From assembly GCA_041483195.1 (NCBI GenBank), contig JBGPFC010000012.1, positions 1 through 64,000 on the forward strand: a DNA stretch of 64,000 nt, given 5' to 3'. The notes under the pieces are model-generated. The model saw nothing but the letters and a program-made list of their open reading frames with translations. It was not told where the DNA came from and did not search any database. The position numbers were made by a program, and so were the translations under genes. This DNA is from Candidatus Eiseniibacteriota bacterium (GTDB taxonomy: Bacteria > Eisenbacteria > RBG-16-71-46). Numbering within the stretch: the stretch's first letter is position 1; every line of letters starts with the position of its first letter. Below are positions 20,247-33,948 of this stretch, piece after piece.

Positions 20247-22028
20247 GTGAACCTCTCGCTGCGGGCGCGCCTGTTCTTCGCGCAGGCGATCGCCGTGATC
20301 GTCGCGCTCGCGGCGGTCACGCTGCTCGCCGCGCAGGAGCAGCGCGCGTGGCTGGTGGAGCGCAACGCGGAGGCGCTCGAGCGGATCGCGCGGATCGCGG
20401 TCCGCGATCTGCCCGGAGAGTGGTCGCGCACCTCGGGCGATGCGACCGAGTGCGCGCGATCGATCGGCGGCGCGCTGGGCCTGCGCGTCACCCTGATCGC
20501 GGAAGACGGGCGCGTGCTCGGGGACAGCGACGTGCCGCGCGAGGCCCTCGACGCCGTCGAGAATCATCGCGATCGCGCCGAGGTCGCCGCGGCCCTCGCG
20601 GGGCGGACCGGTCATGCGGTGCGCCGCAGCCACACCCTCGGCGTGGAATTCCTGTACGTCGCCCGGCCCGCCGGCGTCCGGGAGGTCGCGGTGCTCCGCG
20701 TGGCCGAACCGCTGGTCGAGATCGCCGCGCTGCGCGCCTCGTTGCTGCGGCTCTCGCTGGTGGCGGCGGCGTTCGCGCTGTTGCTCACCCTCGCGCTCGC
20801 GTTCTGGATCGCGGGCCGGCACGCCGCGCGGGTGCGCGAGCTCGAGCGCGTGGCGGCGCGCGTGGGCCGCGGGGAATCGGCGGCGCGCGCGCCCGAGCGT
20901 CCCGCCGACGAGCTGGGGCGCCTCGGTCGCGCGCTCAACGAGATGGCCGCCGAGATGCGGTCGCGCCTCGAGGCCCTGGCGCGCGAGCGCGACGAGCGCG
21001 AGCGCATCCTCGCCCACCTGCGCGACGGCGTGGCGCTCATCGACGAGGCGGGGCGCGTCCTGCACGTGAATCACGGCCTCGTGACGCTGCTCGGGCTGGC
21101 GCTCCCCGCCGCTCCGGGAACGCCGTTCGCGGAGTTCGCGCGCCTGCCCGAGCTGGACGACCTGCTGCACCGCGCGCGCGACGAAGGCCGCACGCTCGAA
21201 TCGGATCTGCGCGCGTGGACGCCGCAGGCGCGGCTGCTCCACGCGACGGTGACGCCCCTCGGCGACGGCGGGCGCGACCCGTTGCTGCTGGTGGTCCACG
21301 ATCTCACCGAGATCGAGGCCGTGAACCGCATGCGGGAGGACTTCGTCGCGAACGTCTCGCACGAGCTGCGGACGCCGCTCACGTCGTTGCGTGGTTACGC
21401 GGAGACGCTGCTCGAGGGCGGGCTCGACGACGCGGAGCACCGCGAGGGATTCGTGCGGGTCATGCGAGATCAGGCCGTCCGGCTCGAGGCCCTGCTCGAA
21501 GACGTGCTGGCGCTCGCGGAGCTCGAGCAGCCCGGGGCGCGGCTTCGCGTCGAACGAATCGATCTGCGCGCGCTGATCGAGCGCCAGGTCGCCGGCATGA
21601 AGCCGCGCGCGGAGCGCGCGGGGCTCACGCTCGCGATCGAGCCGGGCGCGCCGCTGCTGGCGCTCGCGGACCGCGCGCGCCTCGAGCAGGTGATCGCGAA
21701 CCTGCTCGACAACGCCCTCAAGTACACGGAGCGCGGCGGCGTGACGGTCGCGGCCGGCGCGGCCGGCCCGCTCGCGTGGTGCGAGGTGCGCGATAGCGGG
21801 CCGGGGATTCCGCCAGAGGACCAGCCGCGCATCTTCGAGCGCTTCTACCGCGTGGACAAGGCGCGCTCGCGCGAGAAGGGCGGAACGGGACTGGGCCTCT
21901 CGATCGTCAAGCATATCGTGCAGCTCCACGGCGGCTCGGTCTCGGTGGCGAGCGTGCCCGGAGAGGGCAGCACGTTCCGGTTCGAGATCCCGCGCGGCGC
22001 GGAGACGATGGCCGTGACACCGGGCTGA
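20247..22028 (+). CDS. phoR: Phosphate regulon sensor histidine kinase
   Basis: ENHRDRAEV Cache-like periplasmic domain, HAMP, PAS, FVANVSHELRTPL, FERFYRVDKARSR, GTGLGLSIVKH. Confidence 0.9.
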   Translation: MNLSLRARLFFAQAIAVIVALAAVTLLAAQEQRAWLVERNAEALERIARIAVRDLPGEWSRTSGDATECARSIGGALGLRVTLIAEDGRVLGDSDVPREALDAVENHRDRAEVAAALAGRTGHAVRRSHTLGVEFLYVARPAGVREVAVLRVAEPLVEIAALRASLLRLSLVAAAFALLLTLALAFWIAGRHAARVRELERVAARVGRGESAARAPERPADELGRLGRALNEMAAEMRSRLEALARERDERERILAHLRDGVALIDEAGRVLHVNHGLVTLLGLALPAAPGTPFAEFARLPELDDLLHRARDEGRTLESDLRAWTPQARLLHATVTPLGDGGRDPLLLVVHDLTEIEAVNRMREDFVANVSHELRTPLTSLRGYAETLLEGGLDDAEHREGFVRVMRDQAVRLEALLEDVLALAELEQPGARLRVERIDLRALIERQVAGMKPRAERAGLTLAIEPGAPLLALADRARLEQVIANLLDNALKYTERGGVTVAAGAAGPLAWCEVRDSGPGIPPEDQPRIFERFYRVDKARSREKGGTGLGLSIVKHIVQLHGGSVSVASVPGEGSTFRFEIPRGAETMAVTPG

Positions 22029-22094
22029 ACGCGGCCCCCGCCCGCCTCCGCGGCCGTCCGCCGAAATATCTCCGCAATCCGAATTGCCCGCGCC

Positions 22095-22138
22095 GTTACA
22101 GCGCCGTCACGCTCCCGCTCCCGCGCGCACGATAGCGT
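22095..22138 (+). promoter_or_regulatory. Pho-box-like promoter
   Basis: GTTACA (22095) and GTCACG (22106) 11 bp apart; TAGCGT at 22133, 27 bp after second repeat start. Confidence 0.55.
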
Positions 22139-22414
22139 GTGGTCAACGGGGACGGTGGCCGTGGCCGGGATTGCGAGGTCGCCATCGCTTGCCAGTCCAT
22201 CTCTGCCGCGTGCATTCGACAACCTGATTGCGCGACGCCACCTCCCCGAACTTTCACGGCGTGACGGCTGAAGCCCTCTCGACCAGCGGTCATCTTGTCC
22301 GGGTCATCGAGGTGTTCCGGCCGAACGCCCCCGGGGGGGTGCGCTGCTCCTCCTGGGGGAAGCGTGGGGGGAGGGCCTCCTCCTCCGAACCGGGTGTTGC
22401 ATCGAGGCGCTTCG

Positions 22415-22750
22415 ATGAACGTCTTCGCACCTGCATGTGCCGATCCGCGAGGCGAGCGTGGCAGCGCCCGCAGGCGCGGCCGGCCGGCGCTGCTGACTCG
22501 CGCGGAGCTGATCGAGCAGATCCGCCGCCTGCACGAGCGCCCGCCCGGGCTGTTTCGCGTGCACGATTCGCACGCGGGCCTCTATGCGCGCGCCCGCAGG
22601 CTGTTCGGTTCCTGGCGGGCGGCCGTGGCCGCGGCGGAGGTGGACTATCACGAGGTTCTGGAGCGAGCGCGCTCCCGCGCACTCGAAACACGCGCCCTCC
22701 GCTCGCGCGCCGCCCGCGCGGCAGGGCGCAGTCGAGGCGGCGCCCCCTGA
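22415..22750 (+). CDS. Small basic protein with homing-endonuclease-associated-repeat-like motif
   Basis: RRGRPALLTRAELIEQIR...LYARARRLFGSWRAAVAAA. Confidence 0.65.
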   Translation: MNVFAPACADPRGERGSARRRGRPALLTRAELIEQIRRLHERPPGLFRVHDSHAGLYARARRLFGSWRAAVAAAEVDYHEVLERARSRALETRALRSRAARAAGRSRGGAP

Positions 22751-22766
22751 CGCCTCCCGGCCCGTA

Positions 22767-22820
22767 TTTACACCGCCGTTACACCCCGGAGCATTTTCGG
22801 CAACCCGTGGCCGCTAGGGT
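22767..22820 (+). promoter_or_regulatory. Pho box upstream of porin-pst operon
   Basis: TTTACA (22767) and GTTACA (22778) 11 bp apart; TAGGGT at 22815. Confidence 0.65.
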
Positions 22821-22918
22821 TTCGCGCCGAGGGCCGGAGGGTTCGGCCCGCCGCATCTCCGTCGCGCGCTTGCGGCGTCGGATGAATATCCACGGGCCAC
22901 ACTCCGGAGGCGATCCGC

Positions 22919-24064
22919 ATGGACCGCGAGCAGCGAGACACGACCCCGGCATCGTGGAGCGCGTGGATGATCGCGGCCGCGCTCGCATGCGCGGCTCCCT
23001 GCGCCGCGCAGACACAGTCGCAGGCGCTGCTCATCCCTGCGACGCCGCCGGATTACCCGCGCGGCCGGATCAGCGGCTACATCTTCGGCGACTACTACGA
23101 CAACCTCGCGGGAAATCCCGATCATGGCTACAGCTCGAGCGGCGCCGATTCGCTGACGCCCAACATCGACGGCTCGAAGGTGATCGGCCGGGACCTGAAC
23201 GGGCTCCAGGTGCGGCGCGTGTACTTCCAGCTCGACAACGATCTCTCGTTCAGGTTCTCGACGCGCTTCCGTCTCGAGATGGACGGCAAGTCGCTGACCT
23301 CCGACGGCAAGCTCGGCGTGAACGTCAAGGCCGCGTACGCGCAGGCCAGGAGCGTTTACCCGCGCGCCGACGTGCTGGTCGGGGTGCTCTCGACGCCGAT
23401 CTGGGAGGGCTCCGAGGAATTCTGGCAGTACCGCTCGATCGAGAAGACGATCGGGGACTTCCGCGGCATCGGCAGCTCCGCCGACGTTGGCATCGAGCTC
23501 AAGGGCTTCGCCGATTCCGACCACCACGTGGGCTACGTCGCGATGATCGGCGACGGCCCGGGCCAGAAGGCCGAGGACAACCGCTACAAGAAGTTCTACC
23601 TGAGCCTGCCGCTGCGCGCGGGCGATCTGCGGCTCGAGCCATACGCCGACTACGAGAACGCGTTCGGCGCGAAGGACCGCGCGACCTACAAGCTGTTCGT
23701 GGGTTACGCGCTCAAGTGGCTCGCGGTCGGGGCGGAGATCCTGGATCGTGTGAATCACCGTCCGACCGGGGGCAACCAGGAGCCGCACGGCTATTCGGTG
23801 TTCGCGCGCGGCGGCCCCACGCCGGCCATCTCCGCTTTCGCGCGGGTGGACGTCTGGGAGCCCGATCACCGGCTCGCGAACCGCGTGGACCAGCAGCTCT
23901 GGATCGCGGGCCTCGACTGGCAGCCGATCAAGGACGCCCACTTCATGCCCAACGTCGAATCCATGCAGTACGTGGCGAAGGGCACGGGGGTCGTTCCGCC
24001 TCACCACGACCTGCAGGCGCGCATCACGTTCTACTACAAATTCAGCCGCCCGCAGACACCCTGA
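22919..24064 (+). CDS. Outer-membrane porin, probably phosphate-selective
   Basis: Signal peptide, ISGYIFGDYY, LQVRRVYFQLD, C-terminal ARITFYYKF; first gene of pst operon. Confidence 0.75.
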   Translation: MDREQRDTTPASWSAWMIAAALACAAPCAAQTQSQALLIPATPPDYPRGRISGYIFGDYYDNLAGNPDHGYSSSGADSLTPNIDGSKVIGRDLNGLQVRRVYFQLDNDLSFRFSTRFRLEMDGKSLTSDGKLGVNVKAAYAQARSVYPRADVLVGVLSTPIWEGSEEFWQYRSIEKTIGDFRGIGSSADVGIELKGFADSDHHVGYVAMIGDGPGQKAEDNRYKKFYLSLPLRAGDLRLEPYADYENAFGAKDRATYKLFVGYALKWLAVGAEILDRVNHRPTGGNQEPHGYSVFARGGPTPAISAFARVDVWEPDHRLANRVDQQLWIAGLDWQPIKDAHFMPNVESMQYVAKGTGVVPPHHDLQARITFYYKFSRPQTP

Positions 24065-24084
24065 CGATCACGAAAGGAACTCTC

Positions 24085-25164
24085 ATGCAGATCGCATCGC
24101 ATCCCCTCCGGTCCATCGCGGCCGCGCGCGCCAGCGCGATCGCGCTCACGCTCGCGGGCCTCGCTTCGCTCGCCGCGCCGGCGCTCGCGCAGAATCTCAC
24201 GGGGGCCGGCGCCACGTTCCCGTACCCGATCTACTCGAAATGGTTCGACGTGTACCACGAGAAGACCGGGATTCAGATCAACTACCAGTCCATCGGGAGC
24301 GGCGGCGGCATTCAGCAGCTGAAGGCCGAGACCGTCGACTTCGGCGCGAGCGACGCCGCGCTCTCGAACGACCGCCTCAAGGAGATGCCGCGCCGCGTCG
24401 TGCACTTCCCGACGGTGGCGGGCGCGGTCGTGCTCGCCTACAACCTGCCGGGCCTCGCGACCCCCCTCAACCTCACGCCCGATGCGATCGGCGCGATCTA
24501 CATGGGCAAGATCACGGTGTGGAACGACAAGCGGATCGCCGCGGCGAATCCCGGCGTCGCGATTCCCACCGCGCCGATCCTCCCGGTGCACCGCTCGGAC
24601 GGCAGCGGGACCACCAACATCTTCACCACCTACCTCTCGCTGGTGAGCCCGGAGTGGAAGGAGCTGGTGGGCGCGAACACCGCCGTGAGCTGGCCGGCCG
24701 GCGTGGGGGGCAAGGGCAACGAGGGCGTGGCCGGGCTGGTGAAGCAGACGCCGGGCGCGATCGGATACGTCGAGCTGGCGTACGCGAAGCAGAACGAGCT
24801 GCCGGTCGCGCGGGTGCGCAACAAGGCGGGCCAGTTCATCGAGCCGACGCTCGCCTCGACGACCGCCGCGGTGGGGGCGAGCGCCGCGCTGCTCGCGAAG
24901 GACGTGCGCAATCCGATCGCGAACGCGGCGGCGCCCGATGCCTACCCGATCTCGGGGCTCACCTTCCTGCTCGTCTACCAGGACCAGAAGGACGCGGCGC
25001 GCGCGAAGGCGCTCACGGGCTTCATCGCGTGGGCGATGCACGACGGCCAGGAGCTGGCCGCGGCGCTCGACTACGCGCGCCTGCCCGACGCCGTGATCAA
25101 GGTGAACGAGGCCACGCTCCGCACGCTGACCGCGGGCGGCAAGCCGATGGTGGCGGCGAAGTAG
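24085..25164 (+). CDS. pstS: Phosphate-binding protein PstS
   Basis: GAGATFPYPIY, YQSIGSGGG, DFGASD, HRSDGSGTT, GGKGNEGV. Confidence 0.97.
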   Translation: MQIASHPLRSIAAARASAIALTLAGLASLAAPALAQNLTGAGATFPYPIYSKWFDVYHEKTGIQINYQSIGSGGGIQQLKAETVDFGASDAALSNDRLKEMPRRVVHFPTVAGAVVLAYNLPGLATPLNLTPDAIGAIYMGKITVWNDKRIAAANPGVAIPTAPILPVHRSDGSGTTNIFTTYLSLVSPEWKELVGANTAVSWPAGVGGKGNEGVAGLVKQTPGAIGYVELAYAKQNELPVARVRNKAGQFIEPTLASTTAAVGASAALLAKDVRNPIANAAAPDAYPISGLTFLLVYQDQKDAARAKALTGFIAWAMHDGQELAAALDYARLPDAVIKVNEATLRTLTAGGKPMVAAK

Positions 25165-25176
25165 CGCATCGCGATC

Positions 25177-26160
25177 ATGAGCTCCGGTCCCGCCGCCCTG
25201 TTCGCGCCCGCCGCGGCACCCGCGCGCGGCGCGCGCCGCTTCCGCCGGGCCGACGGCGCGTTTCATGGATTGCTCGCGACCCTCGCCGGCCTGGTGTTCG
25301 TGGTGGTGGCGCTGATCGTGATCGAGACCGCGCGCGGGGCGCAGCCATCGATGGCGGCGTTCGGCTGGCGGTTCCTCGTCTCGACCGCGTGGGACCCGGT
25401 GCGCGAGAAATTCGGCGCGCTGCCCTACCTCTACGGCACGCTGGTCTCCTCGGCGCTCGCGCTGCTGCTCGCGCTGCCGCTCGGAATCGGCACCGCGATC
25501 TTCCTCGCCGAGATCGCGCCGCGCGCGCTGGGCGGAGCGGTGTCGTTCGTGGTCGAGTTGCTGGCCTCGATCCCGAGCATCGTCTTCGGGATCTGGGGGC
25601 TGTTCGTGCTCGCGCCGTGGCTCCGCACCGCGATCGAGCCGTGGCTGCTCGCGCACCTCGGCTTCATGCCGCTGTTCACGGGCTTTCCGTTCGGCATCGG
25701 CATGCTGAATGCCGGCATCGTGCTGGCGGTGATGATCGCGCCCACCATCATCTCGCTCTCCCGCGAGATCCTGCTCGCGATGCCGCGCAGCCTGCGCGAG
25801 GCCGCGCTCGCGCTGGGTTCGACCCGCGCCGAGGCGATCGCGGTCACGCTCGACGCCGCGCGCCCCGGCATCCTGGGCGCCGTGATCCTCGCGCTCGGCC
25901 GCGCGCTCGGAGAGACCATGGCGGTGACCATGGTGATCGGCAACACCAACCGCATCTCGGCGTCGCTGCTCGCGCCCGGCTCCACCATGGCGAGCGTGAT
26001 CGCGAACGAGTTCACGGAGGCCACCAGCAGGCTGCACCTTTCGGCGCTGATCGAGATCGCGTTCGTGCTGTTCGGTCTCACCGTGATCGTGAACGCGATC
26101 GCGCGAATGCTCGTGTACTGGGCCACGGGCGCGCGAAGGGACGTGGCCGGTGCGACCTGA
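25177..26160 (+). CDS. pstC: Phosphate ABC permease PstC
   Basis: ELLASIPSIVFGIWG, LGRALGETMAV, IANEF. Confidence 0.96.
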   Translation: MSSGPAALFAPAAAPARGARRFRRADGAFHGLLATLAGLVFVVVALIVIETARGAQPSMAAFGWRFLVSTAWDPVREKFGALPYLYGTLVSSALALLLALPLGIGTAIFLAEIAPRALGGAVSFVVELLASIPSIVFGIWGLFVLAPWLRTAIEPWLLAHLGFMPLFTGFPFGIGMLNAGIVLAVMIAPTIISLSREILLAMPRSLREAALALGSTRAEAIAVTLDAARPGILGAVILALGRALGETMAVTMVIGNTNRISASLLAPGSTMASVIANEFTEATSRLHLSALIEIAFVLFGLTVIVNAIARMLVYWATGARRDVAGAT

Positions 26161-27061
26161 GATCCCGGCGCCGCCCGCCGCGGGACGCACGTCAGCCCCG
26201 GCTCCTGCCGCGCTCCCGGCCGGCCGTCCCGCGCTCCGCCGCCGCGCGTGGAACGCGGCGTGCGTCGCGGCCTGCGCGCTCTCGGCCGCGATCATCCTCG
26301 TGCCGCTCGCGCTGATCGTGTGGCATCTGCTCGCGAAGGGGCTGCCGGCGCTCAACCTGTCGTTCTTCATCCACATGCCGAAGCCGGTCGGCGAGCCGGG
26401 CGGCGGCATGGCGAACGCGATCGTCGGCACGCTGATCCTGATCGGGATCGGCGCGGCGATCGCGGTGCCGGTGGGGGTGGGCAGCGGGCTCTACCTCGCC
26501 GAGTACGGACACGGCGCCTTCGGCGGAATCGTGCGCTACACCACCGACCTGCTGAGCGGCGTGCCGTCGATCGTGGTGGGCGTCGCGGCCTACGCGCTGG
26601 TGGTGCTGCCGATGGGGCACTTCTCCGCGCTCGCGGGCGGCATCGCCCTCGGCATTCTCATGCTGCCCACCATCATCCGCTCGACCGAGGAGGTGGTGCG
26701 GCTGGTTCCGCAGTCGTACCGCCAGGCCGCGCTCGCGCTCGGCGCCCCGCGCTGGAAGGTGGCGCAGCAGGTGGTGCTGCCCGCCGCCGCCGCCGGGATC
26801 GCGACCGCCAGCATGCTCGCGCTCGCGCGCGCCGCCGGCGAGACCGCGCCGCTGCTGTTCACGGCGCTCGGCAACCGATTCTGGTCGGTCGCGATCGACC
26901 AGCCGATTGCGTCGCTGCCGGTCTTCATCTACGACTATGCGCGCGCGCCGTACGACGACTGGAACCGGCAGGCCTGGACGGCGGCGCTGGTGCTGCTCAT
27001 GCTGGTGACCGTGATCTCGGCGCTGCTGCGCCTGACGACGCGGCGCATCCCGCGAGGCTGA
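26150..27061 (+). CDS. pstA: Phosphate ABC permease PstA
   Basis: [31 protein letters not shown]. Confidence 0.96.
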
Positions 27062-27065
27062 TCGC

Positions 27066-27947
27066 ATGGAGGACATCGGGCAGATGAGCGTGCCGGCCTC
27101 TGGCCTCGAGCCGCAGGGCGAACCGCGCGAGCGCGCGCCCGCGCTCCGCACCGCGGCGCCGGCGCAACGCGCCGCGACCGGCACCCCCGGCGCGCGGGCG
27201 CGGCTCGAGACCCGAGACCTCGATCTCTTCTACGGCAGCCATCACGCGCTCAAGCAGGTCACGCTCGCGATCCCGGATCACAGCATCACCGCGATCATCG
27301 GCCCATCGGGCTGCGGCAAGAGCACGCTGCTGCGCGCCTTCAACCGCATGAACGACCTGATCGCGGGGGTGCGCACCTTGGGATCGGTGCGCGTCTCCGA
27401 CCTCGACGTGCTCGCGCCATCGACCGACGTGGTCGAGCTGCGGCGCCGGGTGGGCATGGTGTTCCAGCGCCCCAATCCGTTTCCGAAATCGATCTTCGAC
27501 AACGTCGCGTTCGGGCTCCGCCTGCTCGGGCCCCGCGGCCGCCTGGAGCTCGAGGCGCGGGTCGAGGCGAGCCTCAAGAGCGCGGCGCTGTGGGACGAGG
27601 TGAAGGACCGGCTCTCGCGTTCCGCGCTCCAGCTTTCCGGCGGCCAGCAGCAGCGGCTCTGCATCGCGCGCTGCCTCGCGGTCGAGCCCGAGGTCATCCT
27701 CATGGACGAGCCGGCCTCGGCGCTCGACCCCACCGCGACCGCGCGCATCGAGGAGCTGGCGCTCGAGCTCAAGCGGCGTTACACCATCGTGGTCGTCACG
27801 CACAACATGCAGCAGGCCGCGCGCATCTCGGATCAGACCGCGTTCATGCTGAACGGCGAGCTGATCGAGCACGGCGAGACCCGCCGACTGTTCACCAGCC
27901 CGGCCAGGAAGGTCACAGAGGACTACATCACCGGCCGCTTCGGCTGA
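27066..27947 (+). CDS. pstB: Phosphate ABC ATPase PstB
   Basis: [36 protein letters not shown]. Confidence 0.97.
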
Positions 27948-27976
27948 TCGCGCGCTGGCGGAAAGGAATCACCGAC

Positions 27977-28666
27977 GTGGAACGTCACTTCGAGCGCGAG
28001 CTCGAGCTGCTCAAGGAGCAGCTGCTGCTGATGGGCGGCCGCGCCGAGAACATCGTGCGCAAATCGATCGAGGCGCTGCGCCGCCGCGACGCCGCGATGG
28101 CGGAGGCGGTGCTCGCCGACGACAAGGCGATCGACCGGCTCGAGATCGACATCGAGGAGCGCTGCGTGCGGCTGCTCGCCCTGCAGCAGCCGCTCGCCAC
28201 CGACCTGCGGTTCATCACCGCCGCGCTCAAGATCTCGAACGATCTCGAGCGCGTCGGCGATCACGCGGTCAACATCGCGGGCGGCGTGCTGCGGCTCACC
28301 GGCCAGCCGCTGCTGAAGCCGCTGGTGGACATTCCGCGCATGGCCGAGCTCTCCTCCGCCATGCTGCACGAGGCGCTCGACGACTTCGTGCGGCGCGACG
28401 CCGAAGGCGCGCGCAAGCTGGTGCGCCGCGACGACGAGGTGGACCAGCTCAACGACCAGGTGTTCCGCGAGCTGCTGAGCTACATGATCGAGGACCCATC
28501 GACCATCACGCGCGCGATGGAGCTGGTGCTGGTCGCGCGCAACCTCGAGCGGGTCGCCGACCTCGCGACCAACGTGGCCGAGGAGGTCGTGTTCATCGCC
28601 GAGGCGCGCATCATCAAGCACCACGCCGAGGAATCGGCCGCGGGGGACGACTTCGGGCGATCGTAG
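27977..28666 (+). CDS. phoU: Phosphate signalling protein PhoU
   Basis: QQPLATDLR, DLERVGDHAVN, NLERVADLATN; GTG start with AAGGA RBS. Confidence 0.96.
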   Translation: MERHFERELELLKEQLLLMGGRAENIVRKSIEALRRRDAAMAEAVLADDKAIDRLEIDIEERCVRLLALQQPLATDLRFITAALKISNDLERVGDHAVNIAGGVLRLTGQPLLKPLVDIPRMAELSSAMLHEALDDFVRRDAEGARKLVRRDDEVDQLNDQVFRELLSYMIEDPSTITRAMELVLVARNLERVADLATNVAEEVVFIAEARIIKHHAEESAAGDDFGRS

Positions 28667-28704
28667 TAGGATCGCGGGCGGTCCAGGCCGTCCGCGGAGA
28701 AACC

Positions 28705-29868
28705 CTGCACGTCCGTTTCCTTCGCCCGACGCTGATCGCCGCGCCGGCGCTGGCGCTGCTCGTCCCCGCGCTGCTCGCGACGCCCGCGCATCCGCTCCCG
28801 CTGTTCTCCCGCGATCGCGACCAGGCCTGCGAAGCTTGCCACGAGGTCGTGCCGCGGTTGAACCGCGACGGAGCCGAGTTCCGGCGGAACGGGTATCGCG
28901 CGCCGGGCGAAGCCGGCGTGGCGCCGCGCGTGCTGCCGTTCTCGTTGATCGCGACTTTCGGCGCCACGGCGTGGCGCGCCGATACCGCCGCCGCGCCCGG
29001 CGGACGCGCGCGCTCGAGCGAGACCGCGTTCGAGCAGCAGGCGCTCGAGCTGCACAGCGCGGGCACGCTCGCCCGCAACGTGTCGTATCACGCGTCGGTG
29101 GCCGCCGACGGCGACCGCGGAACCATTCGCGCCGGCGAGACGTTCGTCCAGCTCGACGACCTCGCACGCGGCGGTGCGCTCAACCTCCGCGCGGGCGTCT
29201 TCGATGTCGAGCTGCCGTTCCTCTCGAACGCGCGCCGCACCACGGTTCGGCGCTACCTCGCGCCCGTCACCCTCGATGCCCACGGGCTCGAGCTGAACGA
29301 CGCGAGGCCCGGCTGGACATACGGCACCGGCCTCATCAACAGCCAGCGCGCGGCCACCAGCCTTTCGCCGGGCGGCAGGGCGCTGAACCGGCTCGAGGAC
29401 AAGTACCTGTGGGTGGTGCGCGACGCCGGCGAAGCGCAGCTCGCCGCGCGCATGCTCTTCGGCCGGCAGGACTCGAACCTGCCGAGCCTGCCGTGGATGC
29501 AGCACCTGCAGGCGACGGCGGGCGCGTCGCTCGCGCTGCAACGCATGCTGCTCACGACGGCCTACGTGCTCGATCGCTTCGACGACCGGCCCGCCGCCGG
29601 CATTCACCAGCGGCATCAGTACACGCTGCTCGAGGCGCTGGTGCCGCTGGAGAGCGCGCAACGCTGGGCGCTCACCGCGCGGATCGAGCACGATTGCACG
29701 ACGAAGACGGTGCTCACGCGGGAGGAGGATCGCAACCTCGAGGTGGTGAACGTGGGCTGCTTCACCAGTCCGAACACACGGATCGAGGTCGAGGTCGCGC
29801 ACGGCGGCGACAACGTCGGAGGCCCGCGGGTGGACGAGGTGAGCGCGGGCGTCCAGATCAGCTATTGA
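28705..29868 (+). CDS. Cyc2-like fused monoheme cytochrome c-porin (probable CTG start)
   Basis: In-frame upstream extension of track ORF 28849: signal peptide, then LPLFSRDRDQACEACHEVVPRLNRDGAEFRRNGY (CxxCH, PxL), beta-strand body, C-terminal VQISY. Confidence 0.75.
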   Translation: MHVRFLRPTLIAAPALALLVPALLATPAHPLPLFSRDRDQACEACHEVVPRLNRDGAEFRRNGYRAPGEAGVAPRVLPFSLIATFGATAWRADTAAAPGGRARSSETAFEQQALELHSAGTLARNVSYHASVAADGDRGTIRAGETFVQLDDLARGGALNLRAGVFDVELPFLSNARRTTVRRYLAPVTLDAHGLELNDARPGWTYGTGLINSQRAATSLSPGGRALNRLEDKYLWVVRDAGEAQLAARMLFGRQDSNLPSLPWMQHLQATAGASLALQRMLLTTAYVLDRFDDRPAAGIHQRHQYTLLEALVPLESAQRWALTARIEHDCTTKTVLTREEDRNLEVVNVGCFTSPNTRIEVEVAHGGDNVGGPRVDEVSAGVQISY

Positions 29869-29946
29869 GTGCGCCGCGGGGCCGCGGCTGCGCGCGGAGG
29901 TCCACGCGGCTTCATTTCGCGCCGCCCCGGACCGATAACCGCGAGC

Positions 29947-30417
29947 ATGAGGCTTCGCGTCTTTCCATGGGCCGCGCTCCTGCTGCTGTCGGGGTCCGCC
30001 GACCGCGCATGCGCCGCGCCGGCCTTCGAGCGACCGCCGGCCCAGGTGCGGGTTCAGCTCATCGACCTGCTGAACCTCGCGCGCCCGATCGTGGGGCGAG
30101 CCAGCGCCCGATCCGACTGGAGCCGGAGCGTGCCGCTGGAGCGCGACCGCGATTGGACCGTGGTGCGGTTCGAAGTGCGCGAATCGGGCACCGGACTGTT
30201 TCTCGAAGTCGATGGCCAGGCGCAGTTCGAGGGCGCCGAGATCTGGTTCGCCGACGGCGAGGTGCGCACCATCGACCTGCGTTCCAGCATCCGCGGCGAC
30301 GGGCTGTTCGAGCTGGCGGATTTCGGAGCCGCGCGCGAGGTGTCGCGCGTCCGCCTCGAGGTGCGCGCGCGCAGCGCGAGGGCCCGGGTGGGACTGCGGC
30401 TCGGCCGGCAGCCATGA
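29947..30417 (+). CDS. Secreted hypothetical beta-rich protein
   Basis: Signal peptide MRLRVFPWAALLLLSG, alternating beta strands. Confidence 0.65.
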   Translation: MRLRVFPWAALLLLSGSADRACAAPAFERPPAQVRVQLIDLLNLARPIVGRASARSDWSRSVPLERDRDWTVVRFEVRESGTGLFLEVDGQAQFEGAEIWFADGEVRTIDLRSSIRGDGLFELADFGAAREVSRVRLEVRARSARARVGLRLGRQP

Positions 30418-30457
30418 ATTTCCGCGGGACCATCCGCGGCCGCGGCGGATCGCCCGG

Positions 30458-31132
30458 TCAGTCGTCCGTGCTGTAGATCTTGAATCTGCCCTTGCGCTCG
30501 GCGACCGAGCGCAGCCATCGCTGCCGCTCGACCTCGCCGAGATCGTTGCGCGTGACCAGCACCAGACGGTTGTGGAGTCTGAAATTCCGGTAGCGCGCGA
30601 TCGTGTCGCCCTCGAAACGCACGAACTCGCAGTAGTGTCCGCCGTTGTCCCGCAGTGCGTGCATGCAACCCGCGTGGAGCCGGGCCCAGAGAATCTTCCA
30701 GGCGTCCACCCACGTGAGCCCGACGGCGGGACGGCTCTGGGGAAACTCGCGCCACAGGATGTCGCGGAACTCGCCATCTGTGATGCACAACCCCAGCAGC
30801 GAGTCGCGCTCCCCGTGGTGCAGCGCGCGACACACCGAGCGCCCCAGATCATCGAGGCTGCGCGCGCCGCCCTTGAACGGCCCGCCAACCCGCGGCGCGT
30901 TGAGTCTGCGGCCGGTGCGCTCCGACGACGACTCCGGATCGGCCGGCGGGTAGTAGCCCGGAGAATCCTTCACGGAGGCGACGTGTCGTCGCGCGGCGGT
31001 ATCGGGGGGCGCGGCCTCCCGGGCGGCGACCATGGAGGCCGCGAGCAAGCCGGCCAGCGCCCCCAGCAACAGCATGGCCGCCGGGGCGCGAATGCCGCGC
31101 GGCCTCGCGCGCCGCGCCGTTCGCGCGCTCAC
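30458..31132 (-). CDS. Exported hypothetical protein
   Basis: GTG overlapping the TonB receptor stop (GTGA), hydrophobic leader, globular domain EFRDILWREFPQSRP...GRFKIYSTDD. Confidence 0.7.
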   Translation of the reverse strand: MSARTARRARPRGIRAPAAMLLLGALAGLLAASMVAAREAAPPDTAARRHVASVKDSPGYYPPADPESSSERTGRRLNAPRVGGPFKGGARSLDDLGRSVCRALHHGERDSLLGLCITDGEFRDILWREFPQSRPAVGLTWVDAWKILWARLHAGCMHALRDNGGHYCEFVRFEGDTIARYRNFRLHNRLVLVTRNDLGEVERQRWLRSVAERKGRFKIYSTDD

Positions 31133-33948
31133 GAGCCGTAGGAGAGGGCGACCGAGAAGCTGCGCCCGGTGCGGTACCCCAACACCTCCTTGCCGCGCTG
31201 AAGCTCCTGGATCTTCGGATCGAGCAGATTCTTGGCCGACAGCTTCACGCGGGATCTCCTGAGCAGGGTGAAGTTCATCGTCGCGTCGAGGCTGGTGCTG
31301 GGTTGTTCGTAGATGTCCGGGAGCACATAGGGTCCGAGCGCGCGCAGGCGCCGGCCGACCGCGCCCAGTAGAATCGCCATGTCCGTGCGCCCGCCGGCGG
31401 CCGCATAGCTCAGGGCGGCGTTCACGAGGTAATCGGCCTGGCCCTGCAAGGGGTGCCGCTGCGAGCCGGTCGACGTGATCAGGGGATTGAGCCGCACCTC
31501 GGATGAGATGAACGACGCGTTGGTATTGAGCGAGAAGCGCTTCAGCCCGCGCCACAACCGGCCCAGCCCGGCACGCGCCTCGAGCTCGACGCCCGCGTTG
31601 TGACCGAGCCCGGAGTTCTCTGGCGTCAGGTCGAGCGGAGTATCGGCCGTGATGACCTGCTCGATCGGCTGGTGGAGCCGCTTGTAGAAGAAGCCGGCGG
31701 CCAGCACCTCGGAGAGCGCGGGAAACGCCTCGAACCTCACGTCGTAGTTGTCGATGAGCGCCCGCTTGAGAAGCGGATTGCCCTGGATCCGCATCCCGCC
31801 CACGTATTCGAGGAACGGCCTCGGGGAAAGTTCGTTGAGGTCGGGCCGCGAGAGCGTCCGGCTCGCGGCGAGCCGGAGGTTGAGCGCCTTCGCGATCTCG
31901 AACGTGAGGTTTCCGGAGGGCAGCCAGTCCGCGTTGTCGAGCTCTCCCTTCGATGTGACGCGGGCCGGGGTCCTCGTTTCGAAGCTGAAGCTCCTCACGT
32001 CCTGGAAACCGCGTTCCTTGCGAATGCCGAGGTTGCCGCGCGCGCGCCTCCCGAACGGAAGATCGACGCTCACGAACCACGCGGTCACGCGCTGACTCGC
32101 CCGGTAGTTGTCGTCGGGGAGCGTGGATTCCGCCACCGTGGTGTGATCGAAGATCTGTTCAGGGGGCGCGGACGAGCCATAGCTGTCGTCGGGAATGGCG
32201 AAGTCGAATCGGCGGTAGGAGTCGCGGCGCTCCTTGGACTGGCGGTCGACGCCGAGCACCACTTTGCCGCTCCCGAGCGGGCCCAGCCGGTAGGGCGCCG
32301 CGCCGCTGGCCGTCGTGCCCCATCCGTTCTCGAGCAGGTCGCCGAACTCGCGCCTGCCCAGGGAACCGATCGCCCAGTGGCCGCCGATCCCATTCCCGCT
32401 GGCATCGACGTCGTCGTACCGGTAATCGTAGGTCGTCTCGCGGCGATCGGGCTGCCGGCGCCGCGCCCTCGAACGGGTGAACCTCCAGTCGAGGCTGGCT
32501 CCGAGGAGGTGGGAAAACTCGTTCTTTCCCTCGACCGTCCCCGAGAGAATGTTCCGCTGCACGTACATGAGCCGCGTGTTGCGGTGGATGAGGGGCCCGC
32601 CGGTCAGCGGCTCGACCAGATTGAAGTCCGGGCCCTGATAGATGCGCACCTCGTCATCGGCGCTGTTGGTGTAGAGGCCGCGAAGATGCAGCGAGTGGCG
32701 CGGAGAGAGGCGATAGCTCAGGCCGGAGACGCCGCCGAGTTGGACCGACTCCTTGAAGCGGCTGACGGCGTAGTCGTAGATCGGGTGGTCGAACGTGCCT
32801 TGAAACAGCTGCTGGCGTTCGTCCTGGTGGTCGAAGGAGCGGGACAGGCTCCACGACTCGATCAGCCCGAGCGGCCTGCCGAACAGCTTGAACTCGTCCC
32901 CGAAGGAGGCCGAGTACCCGGCGTTCGGAATCGTTCGAGACGAGGTGGGCGACCAGACGTTCGAGAACGACTTTCCGATGGAGGCCGGCGTCTTCCTCGG
33001 GTCGAGCTTGCGATCGGGGGCGAGCATGGTGATCGGGTCCGGGATCTTCCGGGCGTCCGCGCCGAATCCGAAGAGGTCCGCCCGCGTCGATGCGTAGGTC
33101 TGCCGACCACGAAACGTCGTGCCGTCCGCATCGCCCTGGGCGATGGAGAACGACCACATGCGAGCGCCCGGAAAATCCTTGGTCCTCACCTGAACGTCTC
33201 CGCCGCCGAATTCTCCAGGCCGGTCCGCCGTGTATGTCTTCTGGACCACGATGTTCTCGAGCAGATTGGCGGGCAGGAGGTCCAACGCAACGACGCGCTT
33301 GTTCTGCTCGGGGCTCGCGACGCGAACGCCGTCCACCTCGGTCGAGCTGTACCGTTCCCCGAGGCCCCGGACGAACACGTACTTTCCGTCCGAGACCGAG
33401 AGCCCGGTGACGCGCCGCAGCACCTCCGCGGCATCCTTGTCCGGCGACCTGCGCATCTGCTCGGAGCTGACGGCGTCGGTCAGCGATGCGGACTTCCTTC
33501 GAGCGGCCAGCATCGAGGTCTCGGTGTTCTGTCTCGCCCTGGCCTCGACCACGATCTCCTTCTGCTGGATCGCCTCCGGCGTCAGGGCGGCGCCGAATGG
33601 CAGCAACGCGCCCGCCTCGAGGACGATGCCCTCGATGCGCTTGCTCGCGTAGGAGAGCGCGCGCATCTGCAGCGCATAGCGACCGGGTGCGGCCTCGAGC
33701 AGGAACGTGCCGTCGGCGTTCGTCATTCCGCCCACGCGCTTCATGGTCGTGTCTGCGGGAATCAGCAGGACGTCTGCGAATCCGAGCGGCTCACCCGAGT
33801 CCGTCGCGACGACCCGGCCCTGGAGCTTGCCGGTCGTGGCCGCGGAGGCCGGCGGTAATCCGGCGAACACGAGCGCCAGCGTCAAGCCGGCCGCCCACGC
33901 ACGCTGGCGAGGGCGAGCCGGCTCGTGCCCGGGAGCGATTCCGATCAA
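31129..33948 (-). CDS. TonB-dependent receptor with N-terminal carboxypeptidase-regulatory-like domain
   Basis: TNADGTFLL, plug LRRVTGLSVSDGKYVFVRGLGERY, GNPLLK, NLLDP, C-terminal SFSVALSY. Confidence 0.93.
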   Translation of the reverse strand: MIGIAPGHEPARPRQRAWAAGLTLALVFAGLPPASAATTGKLQGRVVATDSGEPLGFADVLLIPADTTMKRVGGMTNADGTFLLEAAPGRYALQMRALSYASKRIEGIVLEAGALLPFGAALTPEAIQQKEIVVEARARQNTETSMLAARRKSASLTDAVSSEQMRRSPDKDAAEVLRRVTGLSVSDGKYVFVRGLGERYSSTEVDGVRVASPEQNKRVVALDLLPANLLENIVVQKTYTADRPGEFGGGDVQVRTKDFPGARMWSFSIAQGDADGTTFRGRQTYASTRADLFGFGADARKIPDPITMLAPDRKLDPRKTPASIGKSFSNVWSPTSSRTIPNAGYSASFGDEFKLFGRPLGLIESWSLSRSFDHQDERQQLFQGTFDHPIYDYAVSRFKESVQLGGVSGLSYRLSPRHSLHLRGLYTNSADDEVRIYQGPDFNLVEPLTGGPLIHRNTRLMYVQRNILSGTVEGKNEFSHLLGASLDWRFTRSRARRRQPDRRETTYDYRYDDVDASGNGIGGHWAIGSLGRREFGDLLENGWGTTASGAAPYRLGPLGSGKVVLGVDRQSKERRDSYRRFDFAIPDDSYGSSAPPEQIFDHTTVAESTLPDDNYRASQRVTAWFVSVDLPFGRRARGNLGIRKERGFQDVRSFSFETRTPARVTSKGELDNADWLPSGNLTFEIAKALNLRLAASRTLSRPDLNELSPRPFLEYVGGMRIQGNPLLKRALIDNYDVRFEAFPALSEVLAAGFFYKRLHQPIEQVITADTPLDLTPENSGLGHNAGVELEARAGLGRLWRGLKRFSLNTNASFISSEVRLNPLITSTGSQRHPLQGQADYLVNAALSYAAAGGRTDMAILLGAVGRRLRALGPYVLPDIYEQPSTSLDATMNFTLLRRSRVKLSAKNLLDPKIQELQRGKEVLGYRTGRSFSVALSYGS

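Follow-up and report, generated by a model that had tools for sequence, protein, structure and literature searches.

A putative short, divergent member of the Cyc2-like cytochrome-porin superfamily beside the pstSCAB-phoU operon of an Eisenbacteria-type genome

Cyc2 proteins reportedly sort into clusters 1–3, a division credited to McAllister in 2020 and Keffer in 2021, and are said to include A. ferrooxidans Cyc2, Mariprofundus Cyc2 PV-1, and Leptospirillum Cyt572. In the excerpted text of Keffer et al. 2021 (PMC8406198), Cyc2 is defined by a signal peptide, one CXXCH heme c attachment site, the upstream motif AXPXFAR[Q/K][T/Y], a PXL motif at +4, and a 16-strand porin; the upstream motif is described as unique to Cyc2, the length is set at 365 amino acids or more, and the barrels are described as poorly conserved and modeled on OprP/OprO-type templates. 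Both the cytochrome-porin architecture and the occurrence of Cyc2 homologs in Eisenbacteria are known already, the latter from Eisenbacteria metagenome-assembled genomes (MAGs), as stated in an extract of PMC9769843. Here, we analyze a stretch of 64,000 nucleotides from Candidatus Eiseniibacteriota (GenBank assembly GCA_041483195.1, contig JBGPFC010000012.1, positions 1 to 64,000; hereafter, ‘the window’), in which a forward-strand gene directly behind a pstSCAB-phoU operon encodes a protein that we call the heme porin. Its N-terminus resembles a signal peptide and is followed by a single heme-binding site and a predicted porin of 16 strands, and we file it, from its sequence, as a divergent short member of the Cyc2-like superfamily. 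On balance, we consider it probable, with some reserve, that this Cyc2 relative transfers electrons across the outer membrane and does not serve phosphate uptake. The novelty is modest and lies in a short subfamily with conserved predicted loops, in a CTG start through which the heme site escapes gene callers, and in a juxtaposition with pst in one species.

The heme porin can be set beside three groups of described systems. (i) Like Cyc2, it has a short N-terminal monoheme c module, here behind a putative signal peptide, and then a predicted 16-strand porin; PxF.R stands before CxxCH at equal spacing, PxL comes 4 residues after it, and the C-terminal residue is aromatic. Unlike Cyc2, it is only 387 amino acids long, against mostly 400 or more in the excerpts of PMC8406198, the window copy reads PLFSRDR in place of PxFAR[Q/K][T/Y], and its predicted outer loops are the best-conserved segments, unlike the poorly conserved barrels of the same excerpts. 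Fe(II) oxidation genes are absent from its surroundings, and the organism is not known to oxidize iron. (ii) Like OprP and OprO, it matches a 16-strand barrel (Foldseek matches 2o4v and 4rjw), and its gene lies in a pst operon. Unlike them, it has no match to Porin_O_P (PF07396) at E ≤ 1 and carries a heme module that is absent in OprP; BpsOmp38, PorB, and Omp32 match it at least as well, and the conserved porin of the pst operon is another gene (22919–24064). (iii) Like MtrAB, MtoAB, and PioAB, it would join an outer-membrane β-barrel to c-type heme for trans-membrane electron transfer, as these systems are outlined in part of PMC13741234; those are two-protein systems with a 26-strand barrel around a decaheme cytochrome, whereas the heme porin is one chain with 16 predicted strands and one heme site.

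The features of the gene and its product are as follows.

28705–29868, forward strand: fused monoheme cytochrome-porin gene, 387 amino acids, from an inferred CTG start to a TGA stop (translation, alignment, and contigs of four other runs).
28696–28699, forward strand: GGAG, 5 nt ahead of CTG 28705 and probably the site of ribosome binding (read from the sequence; putative function).
28705–28794, forward strand: signal-peptide-like N-terminus, residues 1–30, with a basic n-region and hydrophobic LIAAPALALLVPALLA; helix 6–24 in the model.
28795–28941, forward strand: cytochrome module and linker, residues 31–79, with LPLFSR, CEACH, PRLN, and F…NGY.
28828–28842, forward strand: CEACH heme c attachment motif, C42–H46, the sole CxxCH, invariant in 30/30 sequences.
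28942–29865, forward strand: predicted 16-strand β-barrel, residues 80–387 (AlphaFold2, Foldseek, and conservation map).

Translation of 28660–29871 (+) gives a peptide that contains LHVRFLRPTLIAAPALALLVPALLATPAHPLPLFSRDRDQACEACHEVVPRLNRDGAEFRRNGY and ends VQISY, with the stop codon at 29866–29868. The frame carries a signal-peptide-like N-terminus, LPLFSRDRDQACEACHEVVPRLNRDGAEFRRNGY, and a barrel with the VQISY end, which is the same translation from which an initial annotation, made from the sequence, had concluded that the open reading frame (ORF) listed at 28849 extends upstream to a signal peptide and CxxCH. Its spacing at the junction also agrees with ours: codon 28705 lies 38 bp downstream of the phoU stop, which is TAG 28664–28666. 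The frame is open from 27865, and its first common start is GTG 28849. No ATG, GTG, or TTG was found in this frame 5′ of 28849, which is why ORF lists start there. A product initiated at GTG 28849 would have 339 amino acids and no heme site; one initiated at CTG 28705 would have 387. The sole public gene call, P0001, covers window positions 28858–29868 as 336 amino acids from TTG 28858, begins MNRDGAEF, and has neither signal peptide nor heme site; the heme site is missing because no ATG, GTG, or TTG start lies before GTG 28849. We infer that translation starts at CTG 28705, since GGAG precedes it and the methionine starts of 29 homologs align at or just before it (e.g., MRLLRAM… versus LHVRFLRP…). 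An unusual start codon of this kind can lead automatic gene calling to drop a heme site, and the protein is then filed as a plain hypothetical.

The sequence is no assembly error, since contigs of four other sediment metagenome runs, which may stem from one campaign, match the region with 0 differing letters. They cover 28609–29845 (X2), 28381–28705 and 28684–29002 (X3), 28600–28987 (X4), and 28578–30249 (X5); a further run with this DNA, outside these four, may be the source sample. A one-base deletion at 29021–29022, inside the gene, was seen in some contigs of the four runs, and other X2 and X5 contigs span these positions without gaps; the deletion may reflect variation between strains, DNA of a different organism at 90% likeness, or an artifact of assembly.

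The N-terminus of the heme porin has a basic n-region and a 16-residue hydrophobic stretch, with an atypical putative cleavage site (…TPAHP/LPLF), and the C-terminal residue is a tyrosine, as in outer-membrane proteins. In a family alignment of the window protein and 29 homologs (30 sequences), the positions invariant in 30/30 are P32, C42, C45, H46, L52, G56, G63, G164, Y184, G194, D294, and E328, and the consensus of the N-terminal module reads LPLFSR-x5-CxxCH-x3-PxLN-xxG-xxF-xxxGY. The PxL motif stands 4 residues past CxxCH (CH-EVV-PRL), where P50 is nearly invariant and L52 invariant. Judged by this conservation, the CxxCH motif is not a chance occurrence, since C42, C45, and H46 are the same in every sequence.

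An AlphaFold2 model from the 30-sequence alignment (mean predicted local distance difference test score, pLDDT, 83.1; predicted template-modeling score, pTM, 0.80) contains 16 strand elements, with a small helical module on their N-terminal side and a helix in the signal region. The best Foldseek matches in the PDB are 16-strand porins with probability 1.00, namely BpsOmp38 (E 3.6e-13), OmpT, PorB, Omp32, OprP 2o4v (E 5.7e-11, TMq 0.62), and OprO; a sequence search of the PDB with profile A1 returned one chance match (E 1.8). A standard porin topology, in which the turns on the periplasmic side are short and the outer loops longer, was assigned from the DSSP string, and a conservation map on that topology places the best-conserved segments in predicted loops L3, L5, L6, and L8. 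These include P.LS..RR.TL..YL.PV in L3 (169–189), FDRQDS in L5, DDRPAAGIH in L6 (293–301), with a mean column conservation of 0.83, and N.GGP in L8. Conservation of predicted outer loops at this level would be unusual for porins, and loops so conserved, acidic and His-rich as they are, make the short subfamily handy for locating a substrate site.

Relatives of the heme porin are numerous and largely unnamed. A word-indexed search found 36, most of 376–414 amino acids with ~99% query cover, none of them with a functional name (‘hypothetical’) and several from Candidatus Eisenbacteria MAGs. With phmmer, 1.84 billion cluster representatives yielded 687 hits at E ≤ 1e-3, of which 100 reach E ≤ 1e-10 and 46 reach E ≤ 1e-30. 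The top group aligns over its full length and constitutes the short subfamily, mainly from Eisenbacteria; the remaining hits, mostly of 380–485 amino acids, align only over about residues 10–190. More distant hits carry AxPxFAR[KQ][TY]…CxxCH…PxLN (e.g., P0118, E 2.1e-12; P0165, E 5.8e-9). A cluster look-up of 10 distant hits returned one named entry, a Myxococcales MAG protein. We inspected the N-termini of 178 proteins with a strict (P.FA[RK][QK][TYF]) and a loose (P.[FWY][ASTQ]R) expression: CxxCH is present in 148/178, and among these 148 the strict motif occurs in 38, the loose motif in 90, and neither in 20. Most of the 30 proteins that lack CxxCH are fragments cut short at the N-terminus, and one is an unrelated protein of 1929 amino acids.

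Against the published description of Cyc2, the heme porin has the single N-terminal CXXCH, PXL at +4, a predicted 16-strand porin, and, at 387 amino acids from CTG 28705, a length above the 365-residue minimum. The exact Cyc2 motif occurs within the short subfamily in P0014, P0017, and a paralog in the same genome, and also in a longer homolog of that genome. The Cyc2-like architecture claimed by the initial annotation holds up on these points, namely one CxxCH, PxL, G-Y, the predicted barrel, and homology to proteins that bear the consensus. Cyc2-like cytochrome-porins extend well past iron oxidizers.

The Eisenbacteria-type genome carries three Cyc2-like genes, located in the window and on contigs C1 and C31. 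The C1 paralog (C1:188157–189341; locus L039, 9158–10342) is 36% identical to the heme porin, belongs to the short subfamily, and has the exact motif LPLFARKY. Its neighbors are unrelated and include a GSDH-like protein, a D-Ala-D-Ala ligase-like protein, and YceI. The C31 homolog, a longer ORF of 462 amino acids, reads IPAFARKY…CQTCH (G000 C31:1580–9920, locus L038). About 0.6 kb from it runs a same-strand set of respiratory genes, comprising an FeS/NAD(P) oxidoreductase, a Rieske protein, a split cytochrome b, a multi-domain cytochrome c of 714 amino acids, and a monoheme cytochrome c. From this gene content, the C31 locus is a candidate electron route from the outer membrane to a bc complex, and if the organism uses a Cyc2-type route to the respiratory chain, C31 is the better candidate. 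Of these genes, the one in the window departs furthest from the Cyc2 motif.

A mechanism for the heme porin can be proposed largely from its family, as sketched in excerpts of PMC13741234. The protein would be exported by Sec and receive its heme in the periplasm, consistent with the cytochrome c maturation genes of the genome, which has three PF01578 cytochrome c assembly genes. The barrel would then insert with the heme module at or in its periplasmic mouth, and electrons would pass between a small redox substrate outside the cell and a carrier in the periplasm. From their conservation, the predicted outer loops, which are acidic and His-rich (FDRQDS, DRFDDRPAAGIH, EED, and GDNVGGP), may bind a cation such as Fe2+; this putative site would feed electrons to the heme, and a periplasmic cytochrome would accept them. 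In A. ferrooxidans Cyc2, two sites have been proposed and mutated, according to the portion of PMC13741234 at hand, and they offer an analog for the predicted loop site. The substrate is probably dissolved Fe(II), taken as the default on grounds of analogy, or another small redox substrate.

Gene neighborhoods add to this picture in a minority of relatives. A c-type cytochrome gene lies on the same strand downstream of the ortholog in two of the eight relatives with extended flanks: in L070 (4886–6837), 53 bp past the heme porin, it contains two Cytochrom_C stretches, and in L073 (6446–8584), 15 bp past the heme porin, it encodes a monoheme cytochrome. Both arrangements echo the cyc2-cyc1 gene order of Acidithiobacillus, reported in an extract of PMC10654088, and by this analogy they lend support to a redox role.

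Several observations weigh against reading the heme porin as a Cyc2-like electron-transfer protein. Its HPLPLFSRDR does not match the strict AXPXFAR[Q/K][T/Y]; P, F, and R are in register, and the A, Q/K, and T/Y positions hold S, D, and R. Scans of the 387-amino-acid protein against Pfam and NCBIfam returned no family at E ≤ 1. Similarity to the long Cyc2-like proteins is confined to the N-terminal ~190 residues, and the barrel half, residues ~190–387, is similar only inside the short subfamily. All 48 hits of profile search A2, which span Nitrospirae, Polyangiaceae, and Eisenbacteria, are unnamed or MAG ‘hypothetical protein’ entries, with no named, tested Cyc2 among them. The placement of the heme module and the choice of lumen-facing residues derive solely from the DSSP string. 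Across all related loci, no neighbor is conserved beyond sub-clades, and a cytochrome adjoining the ortholog is absent in 6/8 of the extended-flank relatives. The 38-bp spacer behind phoU is too short for a promoter of the heme porin’s own. Finally, two copies, the one in the window and L008, are embedded in importer operons, which leaves a channel or uptake role in play as a minority reading.

The rival explanations turn in part on the pst operon, whose order in the window is phoR, a 381-amino-acid porin-like gene, pstS, pstC, pstA, pstB, phoU, the heme porin, and a 156-amino-acid ORF. We named pstS, pstC, pstA, and pstB from same-genus alignments and sequence reading.

22919–24064, forward strand: porin-like gene of 381 amino acids that heads the pst operon; G001 and G002 keep it in front of pstS (57–62% identity).
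24085–25164, forward strand: pstS.
25177–26160, forward strand: pstC.
26150–27061, forward strand: pstA.
27066–27947, forward strand: pstB (the four pst ORFs are 76–82% identical in the same genus, in the same order).
27962–28666 (start approximate), forward strand: phoU (Pfam PhoU, E 3e-49).
28666–28708, forward strand: GC-rich stem-loop between phoU and the heme porin, with a putative terminator or attenuator role.
29947–30417, forward strand: secreted-looking ORF, 156 amino acids, without CxxCH or Pfam match, found beside no ortholog.

The heme porin could be chiefly a diffusion channel for nutrients, with a heme module that plugs the pore or gates it by redox state, and its gene could have been taken up by operons of inner-membrane importers to supply their entry through the outer membrane. 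Its predicted fold matches those of general porins and of anion-selective ones, OprP and OprO included, and the window gene ends an ATP-binding cassette (ABC) importer operon. In L008 (3142–8670, labeled Udaeobacter), the ortholog lies within a Bmp-type ABC importer operon, where it separates the ATPase gene from the permease genes and stands 16 bp before a BPD_transp_2 permease gene, and the operon goes on with a nucleoside phosphorylase and an OEP-family gene. Transporters or receptors also occur near the orthologs in L066 (an ammonium transporter and a BBP2 porin), L005 (an MFS/POT transporter), and L043 (a Na/Ca exchanger), in L002 and L007, where TonB-dependent receptors accompany EF-P and an HD-domain protein, and in the window. 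However, the heme-binding residues are invariant family-wide, which is unexpected for a passive pore, and the neighbors are heterogeneous, with many non-transporters: besides EF-P, RecA/RecX in L067, flagellins in L071, asparagine synthase in L072, and thiolase in L052 and L055. The lack of any Porin_O_P match also speaks against it, as does the conserved porin gene that the pst operon of the genus already has before pstS. We regard this explanation as unlikely.

That upstream gene, at 22919–24064, is the conserved outer-membrane gene of the pst operon, judged by synteny, and its product is probably the phosphate porin; the heme porin sits at a synteny break. A Pfam scan of the 381-amino-acid product gave no hit, and its Atlas neighbors are ‘porin family’ clusters in which 20–60% of members have Porin_O_P, which we treat as a lead. 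Kinship between the heme porin and this porin-like ORF was considered and set aside: a profile–profile comparison gave a probability of 2.6%, and none is detectable.

The heme porin could instead belong to the Pho response, co-transcribed with pstSCAB-phoU so that redox chemistry at Fe-phosphate or Fe-oxide minerals frees phosphate for Pst, much as the initial annotation had suggested in coupling redox chemistry to phosphorus scavenging. The gene lies on the same strand, 38 bp past phoU, behind a spacer that has no T-run terminator or promoter-like site; the phoU junction is identical in the contigs of the four other runs, and the runs with matching DNA are labeled sediment metagenomes. Linkage in relatives argues the other way. 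In tblastn searches with the window PhoR, porin, PstS, PstC, PstA, PstB, PhoU, and downstream ORF as queries, PhoU, PstS, PstC, and PstA were found at 0/8 species-representative loci (six with at least 3.8 kb upstream), two of which showed generic ABC ATPase similarity alone, at 26–27%. Similarly, pst/phoU genes were found at 0/9 ortholog loci from 40 related genomes (1.5-kb flanks), at 0/26 metagenome loci (nine with at least 1 kb upstream), and not in the flanks of the C1 paralog. The three locus sets partly overlap (L006 and L012 are the same contig; L003 matches L018), and their counts are not independent.

Orthologs unlinked to pst are what the initial annotation had named as counting against its proposal, and these loci show just that. 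The operon and the heme porin also come apart within the genus. Same-genus genomes keep the pst operon without the gene: a heme porin ortholog occurs in 0/3 of them (93, 80, and 85% complete), and G001 and G002 retain phoR-porin-pstSCAB-phoU at 57–83% protein identity. Similarity of their DNA to the window runs out at window position 28659 (query 4660), where phoU stops, and 3′ of phoU they have unrelated, convergent genes. A search for flanking repeats of a mobile element around 28667–30450 gave only short GC-rich chance matches. The adjacency of pst and heme porin most likely arose when DNA at the operon’s 3′ end was rearranged. As far as these loci go, the juxtaposition appears confined to one species, and a phosphate-scavenging role is unlikely because the adjacency is found only there; the link to phosphate uptake is not for generalizing.

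Expression from the operon meets a second obstacle in the spacer. A stable hairpin intervenes at 28666–28708 (−24.4 kcal/mol, z −3.55, matched by 0/200 shuffles), with an inner stem of 11 pairs (28672–28697) followed by no U-run and an outer stem in which 28666–28670 pair with 28704–28708; the CTG is included in the pairing, as is part of the GGAG. Folded in a 91-nt context, the same region is not exceptional (z −1.39), and the post-phoU folds of the same-genus genomes range from hairpins at z −2.16 in G002 to an unremarkable z −0.67 in G001. The initial annotation saw no obvious terminator here, which stands for the T-run type, as a scan between phoU and the heme porin found none, but not for the hairpin that fills the 38-bp spacer. 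A sigma-70 promoter scan of 22000–31200 found 0 sites and is uninformative for this phylum. Judged from the sequence, the hairpin probably forms the 3′ end of the pst transcript. Putative co-expression with phoU would require read-through to reach the heme porin, with translation then starting at a weak CTG that is partly occluded. A literature search found no publication tying Cyc2 to phoU, pstS, phosphate starvation, or the Pho regulon; among the papers listed, a genome overview of A. ferrooxidans (PMC2621215) has Cyc2 together with such terms. With linkage, hairpin, and a weak CTG start all against it, membership in the Pho response appears quite improbable.

An equally skeptical view would hold the window copy to be silent or decaying, left behind the terminator hairpin of pst by a rearrangement and lacking a proper start codon. 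The missing ATG, GTG, or TTG before 28849, the hairpin over the start region, the most degenerate motif of the genome’s three, and the absence of the gene from same-genus genomes would all fit. Decay is difficult to reconcile with 387 open codons whose G+C content at third positions (GC3) is 0.91, like that of adjacent genes, with the presence of every invariant or nearly invariant family residue, with a GGAG properly spaced from the CTG, and with a sequence identical in the contigs of four runs; we hold it to be quite improbable. Capture of a Cyc2-like porin by the pst operon, with read-through at full Pho induction and iron redox at vivianite or phosphate-loaded ferrihydrite freeing phosphate, would, if true, be a redox route to phosphorus undescribed in the literature searched, and we think it very improbable. 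Transfer of electrons across the outer membrane, as outlined above for a Cyc2 relative, is the function that we hold to be more probable.

Some minor observations concern the regulatory region and flanks of the operon. The E. coli-type Pho box consensus CTGTCATN4CTGTCAT, allowing as many as 3 mismatches, occurs 0 times in the window, against 1.66 expected. A direct repeat, TTACAC-N5-TTACA, lies at 22768–22783 (+), ~135 bp before the porin-pst operon, and resembles PhoP/PhoB-type boxes; genome-wide, T[TC]ACA-N6-T[TC]ACA has 2 matches against ~3 expected and is not significant alone. In the spacer between phoR and the porin-like gene, an ORF of 151 amino acids (22295–22750, +) has a weak match, below cut-off, to the homing-endonuclease-associated repeat PF18780 (E 2.2e-4); its GC3 is low, at 0.76, and it may not be a gene. 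At the other end, beyond the 156-amino-acid ORF, the window continues with convergent genes that include a TonB-dependent receptor.

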